DNA of 64,000 nucleotides from a bacterium (GTDB lineage Bacteria > Hinthialibacterota > Hinthialibacteria > Hinthialibacterales > Hinthialibacteraceae): positions 256,001 to 320,000 of the forward strand of contig CAXXMV010000002.1 of assembly GCA_963662285.2 (NCBI GenBank), in the 5' to 3' direction. The notes beneath the pieces were generated by a model, which was not told where the DNA came from, did no database searches, and worked only from the letters and a program-made list of their open reading frames with translations. Made by a program: the position numbers and the translations under genes. Positions 3,630-58,381 of the stretch are shown piece after piece (the stretch's first letter is position 1; every line of letters begins with the position of its first letter).

Positions 3630-3947
3630 AGATACGATCCGTTTCTAGTTGCCATCTTTTTCGTTTACTATGCAACGATTAGGATGGCTATAAGTGACGC
3701 TAAAATCAAGGAGCTGAAGATTTTTGAATAATATTATTCTACTGGAAAATACAATTTGGTTCTATATGTAAAAAGCGGTAGTAAAAGAACTCCAGGCTTT
3801 TTTCTAATAGTTAACGACTGGGGATGGGTATGAAAGAGGTATAGGAAAAGGTATAGTAATCCAACTTATACAGTGGTTTTATAAAAAAACATGAACGTTA
3901 TAATATAAACCTATCTAAAGGATTATGTTCAGATTGTTTGATTATTT

Positions 3948-54074: not shown

Positions 54075-54252
54075 GGCTGGTTCCTTTCGATGATTAATAA
54101 TTTGTAATGCAAACGATAATTCTAGACTTTCAATATTTCTAGTGAATCTATCATCTATCTACAGCATTTCTTAGACCTTTCTTGCTTATTAGGCAATTTT
54201 ATGGTGAAATTAATTAGATTCACAATCCATCTTCAGATCAAGGCGGTGGTGA

Positions 54253-54363
54253 ATGTACGTAAAAATCTATTCCAGTACGACAATGGGGATTGAAGCCTAC
54301 ATCATGGAGATCATGAACATGAACTTAATTGTAATAGAGGGGGAGCAGGTTAGACCCAATTAG
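54253..54363 (+). pseudogene. Truncated duplicate of the comM/yifB 5' end (36-codon mini-ORF)
   Basis: MYVKIYSSTTMGIEAYIMEI.. versus MYVKIFSSATMGIEAYIMEV..; 51/56 nt identical to 55117-55172. Confidence 0.88.
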
Positions 54364-54449
54364 GGAAATTGCTACAATGACAGTAATACAATGTTCAGTA
54401 TATGCTTAAAATCCAATATATTCTCACTGCTTGCCAGAGAGATTAAACA

Positions 54450-54956
54450 ATGGGACAAATCAGCAACAATTTCGCTTTCATTGATAGCCAGAATCTTTAT
54501 AAGGGGATAAATGATTGTGGTTGGAAATTAGATTTTAACCGTTTTCGAGTTTACCTTAGGGATAAATACAGAGTAACAAAAGCATTTCTTTTTATTGGAT
54601 ATATTGCCGGAAATGAAACGCTCTATACTTCATTGCAGCAGTATGGCTATCTGCTTATTTTCAAACCTACTCTTGAATATAAAAAAAATGGAAAAAGATA
54701 TACCAAAGGCAATGTTGATGCGGAGTTAGTATTACACGCCATCCTTGAGTTTTCAAATTATGACAAAGCAATTCTAGTGTCAGGGGATGGTGATTTTCAC
54801 TGTTTGATTGAGTATTTAGTAAAACATAATAAACTCGGAAAAATATTGATTCCTAACAGGAAAAGATATTCCGCCCTTCTGAGGAAATTCAGGCCATACT
54901 TCGCGTTTCTGGATAATCTTAATATCAAGATTGGGATTGGAGATGAACAAAAATAA
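54450..54956 (+). CDS. NYN domain (LabA/DUF88, PIN-like) ribonuclease
   Basis: FIDSQNL, KGNVDAELV, LVSGDGDF acidic PIN/NYN motifs; AT-rich. Confidence 0.9.
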   Translation: MGQISNNFAFIDSQNLYKGINDCGWKLDFNRFRVYLRDKYRVTKAFLFIGYIAGNETLYTSLQQYGYLLIFKPTLEYKKNGKRYTKGNVDAELVLHAILEFSNYDKAILVSGDGDFHCLIEYLVKHNKLGKILIPNRKRYSALLRKFRPYFAFLDNLNIKIGIGDEQK

Positions 54957-55009
54957 AAGAGGGAGAGTAACCTTCGGACGAAACCTTAGGTGTGCCCCCT
55001 CATCGTGAT
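54951..55009 (-). ncRNA. Predicted ~59-nt small RNA convergent to the NYN gene
   Basis: Upstream minus-strand promoter; GAGGGGG/CUCCCUC stem enclosing ACCU..GG-UUUCGU-CC..AGGU; ends in UUUUAUUUUU. Confidence 0.55.
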
Positions 55010-55015
55010 ATCTAG

Positions 55016-55043
55016 AGTATACCAAGATAAAAGAATTCGTCAA
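55016..55043 (-). promoter_or_regulatory. Sigma70 promoter with extended -10 driving the predicted sRNA
   Basis: Minus strand TTGACG-N16-TATACT with TGG immediately before the -10. Confidence 0.65.
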
Positions 55044-55116
55044 TATATTGTTTCACGTTGTGAGTTCATCTTTTCCCGACATATCTAATCTATGCTAAAT
55101 GGGGGCGCTTAATCCA

Positions 55117-56652
55117 ATGTACGTCAAAATCTTTTCCAGCGCGACAATGGGGATCGAAGCCTACATCATGGAAGTCGAGATGGACATGACTTCCGGTCAG
55201 CCGGGGTTGACTATTGTCGGTCTGCCGGACGCCGCTGTTAAAGAGAGCAAGGAACGGGTTCGCTCGGCATTAGTCAATTGCGGCTTTGCTTATCCGCCCA
55301 AGCGCATGACTCTCAATCTGGCGCCGGCTGATGTCCCCAAAGAAGGCTCGGCGCTTGATCTGCCTATCGCTATCGCCATTCTGGCTGCTAATGGATTGAT
55401 TCCCCTTGAGCGTTTGGAAGATTCCCTATTGTTGGGCGAGTTAGCCCTGGATGGAACATTGCGCCCTATCCGCGGCGCCTTGCCCGTGGCTATGGCGGCG
55501 CAGAAAAGGAACTTTAAACGTTTCCTGCTTCCATCCATGAATGCCAGCGAAGCGGCGGTTGTTGAAAATTTAGATATATATCCAGTCAAGACGCTTCCTG
55601 AGGCTTTTAATATTCTTAACGGTAATGGAGATATCAAACCGTTTACGATCAACGTCGAACATTTATTCAGCCAGGCGGCGCATTACGAAATAGATTTCGC
55701 TGACGTCAAAGGTCAGGAACACGCCAAACGGACGTTGGAAGTGGCGGCGGCTGGAGGACACAATCTGATTATGGTCGGGCCGCCGGGATCAGGAAAAACC
55801 ATGCTGGCTAAACGGCTGCCGACTATTCTGCCGCCCATGAGTTTCGAGGAAGCCCTGGAGACCACCAAAATCCATAGCATCCACGGTTCTCTGCCGCCTA
55901 AGCGGGCTATGATCGCCACGCGCCCCTTCCGCTCGCCGCATCACTCGGTTTCTGACGCGGGATTGATTGGCGGCGGCATCCATCCCCGTCCGGGAGAAGT
56001 GAGCCTGTCGCATCACGGAGTGCTCTTTTTAGATGAACTGCCCGAATTTACCCGCAATGTGCTGGAGAATCTTCGTCAACCGTTGGAAGACGGAAGGGTG
56101 ACCATCTCGAGGGCTTCGGGTTCGCTTACTTTCCCCAGCCGGTTCATGCTGGTCGCCGCAGCTAATCCCTGCCCTTGCGGTTATTTTGGCGACTTACAGC
56201 ACACTTGCCAATGTACGCCAAATAAGATTCAAGCCTATATGTCAAAACTATCCGGTCCACTGCTTGACCGGATAGATATTCACGTCGAGGTTCCCAGCGT
56301 CTCTTTTGATGAGCTGCACTCGCCGCCAACCGGGGATAAATCGTCTGTTATCCGCAAACGGGTTCGACAAGCCAGAGACAAACAACTGGAGCGTTTTGTC
56401 AATCACAAAATCTATTGCAACGCCCACATGAGTTCAAAAGACCTGAAAGATTTCTGTCCCATGGATGAGGCTACCCGCGACATGCTGCGCTCCGGCCTGG
56501 AGCGTCTCGGGCTTTCAGCCCGCGCCTACGACCGGGTAATAAAGGTAGCCCGCACTATCGCCGATTTGGCTCACAGCGAAGACATCCGCCCCGAACATAT
56601 TTGCGAAGCAGTGCAATACCGCACCCTGGATCGGAAACTGTGGCTGCGGTGA
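55117..56652 (+). CDS. comM: YifB/ComM Mg-chelatase-like AAA+ ATPase
   Basis: IVGLPD.AVKES.ERV, NLAPAD..KEG...DLPIA, GPPGSGKT, RPFRSPHH, LFLDELPEF, NPCPCG, SGPLLDRID, SARAY.R. Confidence 0.95.
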   Translation: MYVKIFSSATMGIEAYIMEVEMDMTSGQPGLTIVGLPDAAVKESKERVRSALVNCGFAYPPKRMTLNLAPADVPKEGSALDLPIAIAILAANGLIPLERLEDSLLLGELALDGTLRPIRGALPVAMAAQKRNFKRFLLPSMNASEAAVVENLDIYPVKTLPEAFNILNGNGDIKPFTINVEHLFSQAAHYEIDFADVKGQEHAKRTLEVAAAGGHNLIMVGPPGSGKTMLAKRLPTILPPMSFEEALETTKIHSIHGSLPPKRAMIATRPFRSPHHSVSDAGLIGGGIHPRPGEVSLSHHGVLFLDELPEFTRNVLENLRQPLEDGRVTISRASGSLTFPSRFMLVAAANPCPCGYFGDLQHTCQCTPNKIQAYMSKLSGPLLDRIDIHVEVPSVSFDELHSPPTGDKSSVIRKRVRQARDKQLERFVNHKIYCNAHMSSKDLKDFCPMDEATRDMLRSGLERLGLSARAYDRVIKVARTIADLAHSEDIRPEHICEAVQYRTLDRKLWLR

Positions 56653-56683: not shown

Positions 56684-58381
56684 TTACTTTCTTTTAAGTC
56701 TATTTTCTTCTAGTTGAACAACTCCCAGTGAGCGGGGTTGGAGTTTGAAAGTTATTGAATTCTGGTTGTTCTCAATTTCGACAGATTCTTTTCGGGGTAG
56801 AGCCAGCGCTTTGTTTTTGATGCTCGAAAGTTCTGATACAGAGAGCGGCCTATCAAACTTAACGCTGAATGTAACTGCTGTATCGTTAAAATTTTCCACC
56901 GCCATTACGCCATTGTCATAAAGATAAAGAGAGACGCAGGTCGGTCCACTGATCTCCATTCCTAACGCTTTTAATAAAGGCTTTCTGATCTCCTCTAGTT
57001 GCTTGCTGTCTAGTTTATATAAATCACGTGGTTCCTGGGGAATCTGAATAACTTTTACTGACTTGGGTATTTCAAGGTGTTTGCTCTGGAGCAGATCTTT
57101 CATATTATGGGTTAGCAAAACTGGTTTGCCGTCAGTGATGAATTTATTGAATTGTCTGGGGAAAACGCCTTGCTTCCAACTCTGCGTTGCGAATAATGCG
57201 CAGGGAAAAGCGGCGTCTATCGTACTTAATGGCGCCATGGGGATGCCCAACATGCCCAGGAAATCATAGATGTACATCTCTTTCGGTGCATCGCTGTTAG
57301 GAATCTTTACCGCCAAAACACCGGTAGGTTTTGCGCCATGAATCAGTTTTGCTAATTCAAATAGCAGGGGCAATTCTTTTCTTAATTCAACCACATTGTC
57401 TGCATGTTCGTCTGACAATAGGGTTTTGTAATTAAACAACAATGCATCTCTCGCTCCTCCAAGGATGGTTTGGCGCGCTTGCTCAACATAAGTCTTGGGA
57501 TTTGTTCCATAAGGATCAAACCAGCCGCCTCCGGTTTTGGCGCCGCCGACGTCGGTTAACCATTGCATAATGAAGAAGGCTTCATATTGCGCTTTGCGTC
57601 CCCATTGCTTACTATCGGGATCACGCGTTTCAGTACCCACCCAGATGATATCAAAATCCCTGGTCTGCGCATCAACGTCATATCCTCGATTATGGAAATT
57701 GTCATACCACTGGGGATATTTTATAATGACTTTAACATTGGGATTCACTTCCCGCGCCGGTTTAAGGATTCGCTCATGACTAGCGCGAAGCATCAGGTCG
57801 CATCGATAGTCAGCCCAGCTGCGTTCGCCACGGGCTTTTTCAGAAATTTCAGTAGTATCATCGGTAAACAGAAAATCATCGATCATAATAACGTCAAACA
57901 AAGACGCAGTGAAACGGAATATTTTCTCACACTCTTCCAGGGTTTTTGGCATCTCGTAATTTGATACCAATTTCCATCCGTTTGATTCAACTCCAATTCC
58001 AGTAGTTGTGACGCATCCGTCGGTTATAAAGCCTGCTTTCTTAAAAGCGTCGCGTCCCCTTATCATGTCTTCTTCTTTAGCCATATATCCATTGCGGAAA
58101 GTTTCGATAAAAACCCGCGTCACGCCGGTTTCTTTACACCATTGAATAGCCTTGTCGACTCCTTCATCAGTAGAGAAATCATCGCGAACGGTTTGCGCAG
58201 TGATTAGAGTTGAAAACTGAAATGTTTTTTCATATATCTTTGCCAAGAACGAAAGTTTCGATTCATCACTGGAGACGGTGATTGCAGGCAATAATAAAAA
58301 GGTTATAAACATTATTACTGGAACCAATGATCTGTAATTCTGATGAGTATTAATGAAAAGATGTTTTAGATAAATCTTCAT
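56684..58381 (-). CDS. Secreted putative glycoside hydrolase-like protein (TIM-barrel type, unclassified)
   Basis: Signal peptide; ETFR, MIDDF.F, IIKYPQWYD, WVGTETRD, GGWFD, EQARQT.L.G motifs. Confidence 0.6.
   Translation of the reverse strand: MKIYLKHLFINTHQNYRSLVPVIMFITFLLLPAITVSSDESKLSFLAKIYEKTFQFSTLITAQTVRDDFSTDEGVDKAIQWCKETGVTRVFIETFRNGYMAKEEDMIRGRDAFKKAGFITDGCVTTTGIGVESNGWKLVSNYEMPKTLEECEKIFRFTASLFDVIMIDDFLFTDDTTEISEKARGERSWADYRCDLMLRASHERILKPAREVNPNVKVIIKYPQWYDNFHNRGYDVDAQTRDFDIIWVGTETRDPDSKQWGRKAQYEAFFIMQWLTDVGGAKTGGGWFDPYGTNPKTYVEQARQTILGGARDALLFNYKTLLSDEHADNVVELRKELPLLFELAKLIHGAKPTGVLAVKIPNSDAPKEMYIYDFLGMLGIPMAPLSTIDAAFPCALFATQSWKQGVFPRQFNKFITDGKPVLLTHNMKDLLQSKHLEIPKSVKVIQIPQEPRDLYKLDSKQLEEIRKPLLKALGMEISGPTCVSLYLYDNGVMAVENFNDTAVTFSVKFDRPLSVSELSSIKNKALALPRKESVEIENNQNSITFKLQPRSLGVVQLEENRLKRK

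Follow-up and report, generated by a model that had tools for sequence, protein, structure and literature searches.

A predicted small RNA gene convergent with an NYN nuclease gene is conserved across phyla: a candidate selfish cassette with an antitoxin-like RNA

The NYN gene and its convergent RNA gene

The window analysed here is a 64,000-nucleotide (nt) stretch of a bacterial contig (CAXXMV010000002.1, positions 256,001 to 320,000; family Hinthialibacteraceae), and the subject of this report is a pair of genes within it. One encodes an NYN-type nuclease, while the other is a predicted small RNA gene that converges on it from the opposite strand and ends over its stop codon. A first-pass annotation of the window had proposed that the two form an RNA-antitoxin system. 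The features of the pair, in window coordinates, are as follows.

54450–54956, plus strand: NYN (LabA/COG1432-type) nuclease gene, an open reading frame (ORF) of 168 amino acids (aa)
55016–55043, minus strand: sigma-70-type promoter of the small RNA, with −35 box TTGACG (55043–55038), a 16-nt spacer and a TG-extended −10 box TATACT ending at 55016
54947–55009, minus strand: predicted small RNA of ~60 nt (both ends predicted), with a conserved single-stranded 5′ tail (AUCACGA...) followed by a two-helix hairpin and then a U-tract
54959–55001, minus strand: the two-helix hairpin, 43 nt, with an outer helix of 7 base pairs (bp), an inner helix of 4+2 bp around a tandem mismatch, and the apical loop UUUCGU

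The 168-aa protein matches the Pfam family NYN (PF01936) over residues 10–139 (E = 2.5e-14; 54.4 bits, cut-off 24.2), as well as the solved LabA-like structure VPA0982 (PDB ID: 2qip; E = 1.4e-7). Four acidic residues, D12, D90, D113 and D115, are assigned to the active site by alignment to 2qip and by the main text of Matelska 2017 (PMC5499597). All four are unchanged in 34 of 34 NYN homologs, where 60 columns are invariant in all and the mean column identity is 72% across phyla. Judged by these invariant residues, we propose that NYN is a catalytically competent nuclease. The same main text lists the bacterial NYN.COG1432 group with unknown function (PMC5499597). Neither a named NCBIfam protein family nor PHROGs matched the window NYN.

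The promoter of the RNA, which agrees with the consensus at 10 of 12 positions, is the best of eight promoter-like sites between 53900 and 55400, a region whose shuffles hold 4.2 ± 2.0 such sites. The minus-strand hairpin has a predicted folding energy of −18.6 kcal/mol, and the U-tract that follows it covers the TAA stop codon of NYN (54954–54956); the plus-strand hairpin has no U-tract. Promoter, hairpin and U-tract lie where the first-pass annotation had placed them. The outer stem, as it had also observed, is fully paired only on the minus strand, with one G-U pair that becomes an A-C mismatch on the plus strand. A simple terminator scan returned no sites, its loop limit leaving out branched hairpins like that at 54959–55001. 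We considered a small ORF inside the RNA (AUG-AGA-GGG-CAC-ACC-UAA) and rejected it, its AUG being absent from several RNA subclasses. On its own the single window copy proves nothing, and it is the comparison with homologs that makes the case.

Conservation and covariation of the RNA across phyla

Relatives of the window NYN are numerous, with all 8000 scored candidates at E ≤ 0.001 and the best 120 being 64–92% identical to the window protein; their source names include Omnitrophica, Patescibacteria, Uhrbacteria, Parcubacteria, Gottesmanbacteria and Scalindua. For comparison of the surrounding DNA we used the best 80 of 489 relative-encoding stretches (597 candidates; one genome per GTDB species), which span at least ten phylum-level groups by source names. 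Neither these loci nor the metagenome loci described below include P0002, the 92%-identical homolog. The 120 nt past the NYN stop show the same opposite-strand unit in nearly all of the genome loci, and over all comparisons it is present in 79 of the 80, the remaining locus (L079) ending at a contig edge. The order of the unit is common to them: a TTGACA-type box, 16–18 nt, a TATAAT-type box, 5–9 nt, the AUCACGA tail, the hairpin and a run of U.

The window copy and the 79 loci were aligned (alignment A1), and a covariance model, R1, was built from A1. R1 matches the window at 54942–55011 on the minus strand (80.7 bits) and scores 32–85 bits over 160 loci. Columns 3–9 of the 5′ tail are at least 90% identical in A1, and the two G-C pairs closing the apical loop are kept in 80/80 and 77/80 loci, respectively. 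Both the tail and these loop-closing pairs are conserved outside any coding sequence (CDS). With a 15-pair structure laid on A1, 81% of cells are paired, compared with 67% in shuffles, and 14 of the 15 pairs show changes on both sides. The number of double-change cells is 172, against 52.4 ± 5.5 in shuffles, and none of 500 shuffles reaches 172. As the A1 sequences are related, the shuffle figure is not a probability, but a slid control that keeps this relatedness, in which the 3′ partners are moved by 1–3 columns, gives at most 46 double-change cells and so is still far lower. Across phyla, then, the alignment describes an RNA gene that is conserved and covarying. We also considered a pseudoknot between tail and loop (ACGA with UCGU) and rejected it, since 136 distinct RNAs simply conserve both parts, and seven G-to-C tails have no compensating change in the loop.

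Linkage of the RNA gene to NYN

R1 gave exactly one match, on the strand opposite to NYN, in 80 of 81 sources; the miss is again L079, which ends five bases past NYN. The 80 metagenome loci, none of which had gone into the model, each gave one convergent match as well; judging by length, at least three of them are the same contigs as genome loci. All 159 testable NYN-homolog loci (79 genome and 80 metagenome) carry one convergent copy of the RNA, and in none of them was the RNA found missing beside an intact close NYN homolog. The earlier proposal hung on conservation and covariation downstream of NYN homologs. Both were found, the former in every testable locus and the latter in the excess of double changes reported above. 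Across these loci the RNA gene is obligately linked to NYN in a fixed orientation.

The reverse situation does occur. We searched 151 genomes drawn evenly from the phylum of one carrier locus (L015; Gottesmanbacteria, Patescibacteria) and found the RNA in 23, four of these carriers having two R1 matches. Among the 25 new RNA matches, 21 adjoin a convergent NYN, which in two cases is split (L203 and L216), and four have no NYN (L200, L206, L211 and L218). In at least two of these four NYN-less loci the promoter also looks decayed. This asymmetry of loss is what would be expected if the nuclease were tolerated only together with the RNA; plain deletion remnants would also be compatible with it.

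Several arrangements depart from one RNA per NYN gene. In one genome, two RNA copies lie 128 nt apart beside a single NYN (G181:C4:32184-32385; L205 and L220). In two other loci a second, more distant NYN-domain gene directly adjoins the cassette (L025:3614-4195 and L043:1867-2409), and each of these loci has one R1 match despite its two NYN genes. The first codons of the two NYN genes of L025 are common to both, which explains the flanking repeat present there. The window's own genome contains a second, distant NYN-like frame (G000:C6:207508-207714; 37% identity over residues 56–123, within a 293-aa open frame), with no R1 match beside it.

Promoter, terminator and overlap geometry

Within the 50 nt that precede the tail, agreement with TTGACA/TATAAT reaches at least 10 of 12 positions in 68 of 80 loci, but in only 15 of 2000 stretches of 50 nt drawn at random from these loci. 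The TTG of the −35 box is invariant (80/80 loci), and the −10 box ends 5–9 nt ahead of the conserved tail in 78 of 80 loci. At the other end of the RNA, at least six U are found among the nine nt past the stem in 68 of 80 loci. A conserved antisense promoter together with a conserved stem, which the first-pass annotation had suggested seeking by covariance model, is therefore what the homologs display, R1 being present in all testable loci. In 70 of 80 loci the predicted RNA runs at its 3′ end into the NYN CDS, to preferred depths of ~5, 20 and 39 nt, and this 3′ overlap with the RNA gene is seen in the proteins, where the variable C-terminal tail of some NYN homologs is the hairpin read in reverse.

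The start of the NYN gene differs from this. A promoter-like site of at least 10/12 positions lies within 145 nt upstream of NYN in 9 of 78 homolog loci, compared with 4% of 1500 control stretches, and no sequence upstream of NYN is conserved among the homolog loci. The window has the following upstream of its copy.

54351–54406, plus strand: two weak promoter-like sites upstream of NYN, each matching 9/12 positions; lineage-specific

By these comparisons, NYN is without a conserved promoter of its own and the RNA promoter is predicted to be strong.

The cassette as an insertion beside comM

The first-pass annotation did not see that the pair is, by its sequence context, a horizontally acquired insertion flanked by a duplicate of the start of comM. 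The GC content is 0.32–0.38 over 54100–55099, compared with 0.54–0.58 in the adjoining comM, and a direct repeat (D1; 57 nt, 91% identical, spacing 864) brackets the cassette.

54252–54308, plus strand: left repeat copy, in which the comM start is duplicated in degenerate form
55116–55172, plus strand: right copy, the true start of comM/yifB (Mg-chelatase-like; likely CDS 55117–56652)
55044–55115, plus strand: non-conserved right spacer of the insertion, past the −35 box, which is the last conserved block of the cassette

The left copy is part of a 36-codon pseudo-ORF (54253–54363) with a comM-type promoter-like region upstream. Its translation is MYVKIYSSTTMGIEAYIMEIMNMN, compared with MYVKIFSSATMGIEAYIMEVEMDM in the real comM, and relatives are nearer to the right copy. 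A comM-type −10-like motif, TATGCTAAAT, lies at ~55091–55100 in the right spacer, where it resembles by eye the comM upstream regions of two relatives (L100 and L104). The duplication of comM may, in diverged form, extend into the promoter region. Such a motif precedes both copies of the comM start (54075–54251 and 55075–55115), namely TATGGTGAAAT for the left copy and TATGCTAAAT for the right one.

Among 40 relatives we found no close NYN homolog (the best is 36% identical) and no match to 54940–55116, and in 16 relatives comM is present without the cassette upstream. R1 has one match in the window's own 7.3-Mb genome and one in each of five other carrier genomes, so the cassette is single-copy in 6/6 genomes. 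Taken together, these comparisons indicate that the cassette is an insertion, acquired horizontally.

We scored flanking repeats for 69 cassettes, 12 of 81 having been dropped for an element that could not be placed or a flank that was too short. Host-specific direct repeats flank 16 of the 69, with scores of 24–139, while the highest cross-locus control scored 15. They lie 40–290 nt from the conserved core, with unrelated spacers between. The longest, in L047, comprises 139 identical bases, among them the 5′ portion of a gene for tRNA-Gly(UCC). The L056 repeat consists of the final 37 codons of a QueF-like gene, with 31 of 37 residues identical at ~67% nucleotide identity and the copies differing mostly at synonymous sites. 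The two copies therefore derive from two separate gene lineages and not from duplication in place.

L047 contains traces of other events. To the left of its cassette, the displaced tRNA-Gly(UCC) copy carries a ~66-nt hairpin-rich insert in the anticodon loop (2716-2930, 3718-3902), and the intact tRNA-Gly is closely followed by a gene for a phage-type integrase (L047:3978-5024, minus strand). This tRNA locus has thus served two different kinds of insertion. In another lineage the cassette is found just downstream of a comM/Mg-chelatase gene with an Mg_chelatase_C domain (L075:1844-2224). Adjacency to comM has therefore been found twice, on opposite sides of the gene.

No conserved element ends were found, there being no conservation upstream of NYN or beyond the −35 box. 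We rejected a multi-copy transposon or insertion sequence, given the lack of such ends, the variable repeats of 24–139 nt, and the copy numbers (one in 6/6 genomes; two in 4 of 23 carriers of the phylum sample). A phage-borne element was likewise rejected, as only one locus was found in viral contigs and PHROGs was without a match. We infer that the cassette lacks its own transposition machinery and enters genomes by host recombination.

Host gene neighbourhood

Host genes next to the cassette mostly run in its direction: 65 of 76 upstream neighbours and 59 of 74 downstream neighbours do so, and in 53 of 73 loci both do. No conserved protein partner was found beside NYN among the homolog loci, which bears out the first-pass statement that there is no protein antitoxin there. 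Some neighbours are restriction-modification, Cas, Abi or toxin genes. In L069 (295-4281) the cassette sits between cas3 and cas5 of a type I CRISPR-Cas operon (Pfam Cas3_HD/Cas3-like_C_2 and Cas_Cas5d). A defence system was considered and rejected: on the window NYN, PADLOC gives a generic NYN model (7.6e-10) and HEC-09 (5.5e-5) and nothing further, and the neighbours are mixed. Beyond comM in the window, and convergent with it, is a 565-aa ORF (56684–58381, minus strand) with no Pfam match at E up to 0.01.

A selfish pair with an antitoxin-like RNA, and its competitors

The reading that we rank first, and to which we give an even chance, is that of a selfish nuclease/RNA-antitoxin-like pair spread by recombination. 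It is placed first because it accounts jointly for the linkage, the strong promoter of the RNA against none for NYN, the intact active site, the asymmetry of loss, and the success of a single-copy cassette across phyla. Its mechanism is inferred, from the transcription of the RNA and the toxicity of NYN to which of the two regulates the other, their binding, and the route of recombination. The cassette would consist of two genes, the NYN nuclease and a convergent RNA of ~60 nt with a strong constitutive promoter and a terminator of its own, the latter formed by hairpin and U-tract and lying at the 3′ end of NYN or within it. Little NYN would be produced, through read-through from the host or from weak promoters nearby, and the abundant RNA would act as its negative, antitoxin-like partner, neutralising NYN. 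This could happen in two ways. In the type I manner, the RNA could base-pair with the NYN mRNA, to whose 3′ end it is complementary; in the type III manner, the NYN protein could bind the RNA at its invariant parts, the 5′ tail and the apical loop. Protein binding is favoured over pure antisense action because the tail and loop are conserved without a coding or pairing reason. Entry of the cassette would follow DNA uptake and make use of one homologous flank, by homology-facilitated illegitimate recombination or by Campbell-type integration of a circle. Either route would leave the end of a displaced host gene as a flanking repeat, here the start of comM.

A number of observations weigh against this reading. 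The first concern the strand and the fold. Taken alone, the window hairpin is within chance (z = −1.69; 12 of 200 shuffles are as stable), and its plus strand is about as stable (−17.6 kcal/mol, z = −2.17). Of 80 loci compared, 47 have the more stable fold on the minus strand and 31 on the plus strand, and the minimum free energy (MFE) folds of either strand contain 52 G-U pairs. A strand call from the raw count of G-U versus A-C (62 to 41) was rejected as distorted by one misregistered subclass and one internal loop. With the folding-energy and G-U tests weak, the assignment of strand rests on the direction of promoter and U-tract. Secondly, three of the 80 loci (L020, L071 and L092) have an apparently intact NYN with only 7–8/12 promoter matches, and the NYN-less RNAs may be plain remnants of deletion. 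Thirdly, the neighbours are mostly housekeeping genes (tRNA synthetases, DnaK, SHMT, enolase, SecA, FtsZ) and not defence islands, and we found no evidence for the defence module that the first-pass annotation had envisaged. Finally, COG1432 NYN proteins are not established toxins (cf. the main text of PMC5499597). The RNA antitoxin that it had proposed fares better: NYN never occurring without the RNA, a strong RNA promoter against none for NYN, and invariant catalytic residues all fit, but the textbook layouts of types I and III are not those of the cassette.

Four other explanations were weighed. In the first, the RNA would serve plain cis-antisense or transcription-interference damping of a non-toxic accessory RNase, together with insulation of the host operon, with no addiction logic. 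The convergent geometry overlapping the end of the CDS is what such damping would use, the cassette is usually co-directional inside strings of host genes (both neighbours, as counted above), and with no U-tract on the plus-strand hairpin, host read-through can continue. We nevertheless consider this rather unlikely, as it does not need conserved primary sequence in tail and loop and leaves the spread of a single-copy cassette across phyla at 60–70% identity unexplained.

In the second, the RNA would be a cofactor, substrate or targeting partner of NYN, as a ribonucleoprotein or a processed RNA, needed for NYN function and not for its inhibition. Obligate linkage, an invariant 5′ tail and loop without a pairing partner, and a protein whose mean column identity across phyla suggests a fixed macromolecular partner are all in its favour. 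Against this, a constant tail is not a programmable guide, there is no need for antisense coding that overlaps the 3′ end of the gene, and the NYN-less RNAs are easier to understand as leftover antidotes or remnants; this account appears unlikely to us.

The third, which we regard as quite improbable, would place the function in the DNA, the hairpin and adjacent conserved bases being a site of recombination or insertion, or else a portable module of terminator and promoter, with the promoter incidental. While the cassette is mobile and repeat-flanked and its hairpin folds on both strands, the distance of the repeats from the core means that the hairpin is not at the junctions. Moreover, the element is single-copy in all six genomes counted, is never apart from NYN in NYN-centred loci, and conserves promoter spacing and U-tract as a transcribed unit would. 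The last, a chance promoter beside an ordinary terminator, draws on the weak single-sequence statistics and is refuted, with next to no chance left to it, by the 159 of 159 testable loci that share the unit, with covariation.

Comparison with known systems

The element is outside Rfam 15: no family matched it in the window with E allowed up to 10, nor in five loci representing different RNA subtypes with E up to 1, and the whole window has no match at gathering score. In the literature searched, we found no NYN paired with a small RNA and no homing role for one. NYN, LabA, DUF88 and PF01936 are absent from the main text of Weinberg 2017 (PMC5737381). The RNA motif is easily modelled by R1. Bacteria have thousands of NYN/COG1432 proteins of unassigned function; for the present subfamily, the built-in partner RNA is an experimental handle. 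The NYN–RNA cassette is present, by source names, in Omnitrophota, Elusimicrobiota, Planctomycetota and others. Its flanking duplicated ends of host genes would be a clean natural record of the entry of a small cassette by homology-assisted recombination.

The NYN protein belongs to the same domain family as LabA and the other COG1432 proteins, by its matches to Pfam and 2qip, and keeps their acidic active-site residues. The subfamily here differs in being defined by a linked RNA gene: in PMC5499597 the parts consulted give no associated small RNA, and its main text is without the word 'antisense'.

The cassette resembles IS10 in being a mobile, selfish enzyme gene with its own small antisense RNA inside the mobile unit. 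In the RNA-OUT/RNA-IN pair of IS10, the antisense RNA lies over the 5′ end and start codon of the gene, whereas the NYN-linked RNA lies at the 3′ end of its gene, and no conserved element ends were found. We know of no NYN that catalyses mobility.

Type I systems include pairs with convergent, 3′-overlapping antisense RNAs, such as txpA/RatA and bsrG/SR4 of Bacillus subtilis. The likeness to these lies in a small RNA gene with its own promoter convergent to the putative toxin gene, in complementarity at the 3′ end, and in the lack of a protein antitoxin. By geometry the RNA would be complementary to the NYN mRNA, being cis-encoded with a predicted overlap in 70/80 loci. A further point against the antitoxin-like reading is that type I toxins are usually hydrophobic peptides of <60 aa, while here the protein is a soluble 168-aa NYN nuclease, which makes the pair atypical for type I. 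The deeply conserved unpaired tail and loop are also needless for a purely antisense antitoxin, and the NYN–RNA pair is one family over many phyla. Nuclease-like type I toxins under RNA control have been described, as the parts of the reports consulted for SymE/SymR (PMC1891008) and RalR/RalA (PMC4041452) indicate.

With type III systems the proposed pair would share an endoribonuclease-type toxin, a structured RNA as direct protein-binding inhibitor, and the lack of a protein antitoxin, and the conserved primary sequence of the RNA is consistent with recognition by protein. In ToxIN, CptIN and TenpIN, the antitoxin RNA is a set of tandem repeats upstream of the toxin gene on the same strand, with a terminator between, and is processed by the toxin; ToxN itself has a Kid/MazF-like fold. 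Here there is a single hairpin, downstream and on the opposite strand, which also weighs against an antitoxin role, and the fold is NYN/PIN-like. With no repeat array, the pair falls outside the known type III families. Should the RNA prove to be an antitoxin, RNA-antitoxin systems would gain a new architecture, and one common in bacteria of the candidate phyla radiation (Patescibacteria; 23/151 genomes). A broader claim is possible, though on present evidence doubtful: that the cassette represents a new and very widespread class of RNA-controlled selfish nuclease modules, in which NYN would specifically bind a single-hairpin antisense RNA by its invariant tail and loop and be held inactive, and in which the pair would move between phyla by host recombination, duplicating the ends of host genes. 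Such modules would follow a type III-like logic in a different architecture.

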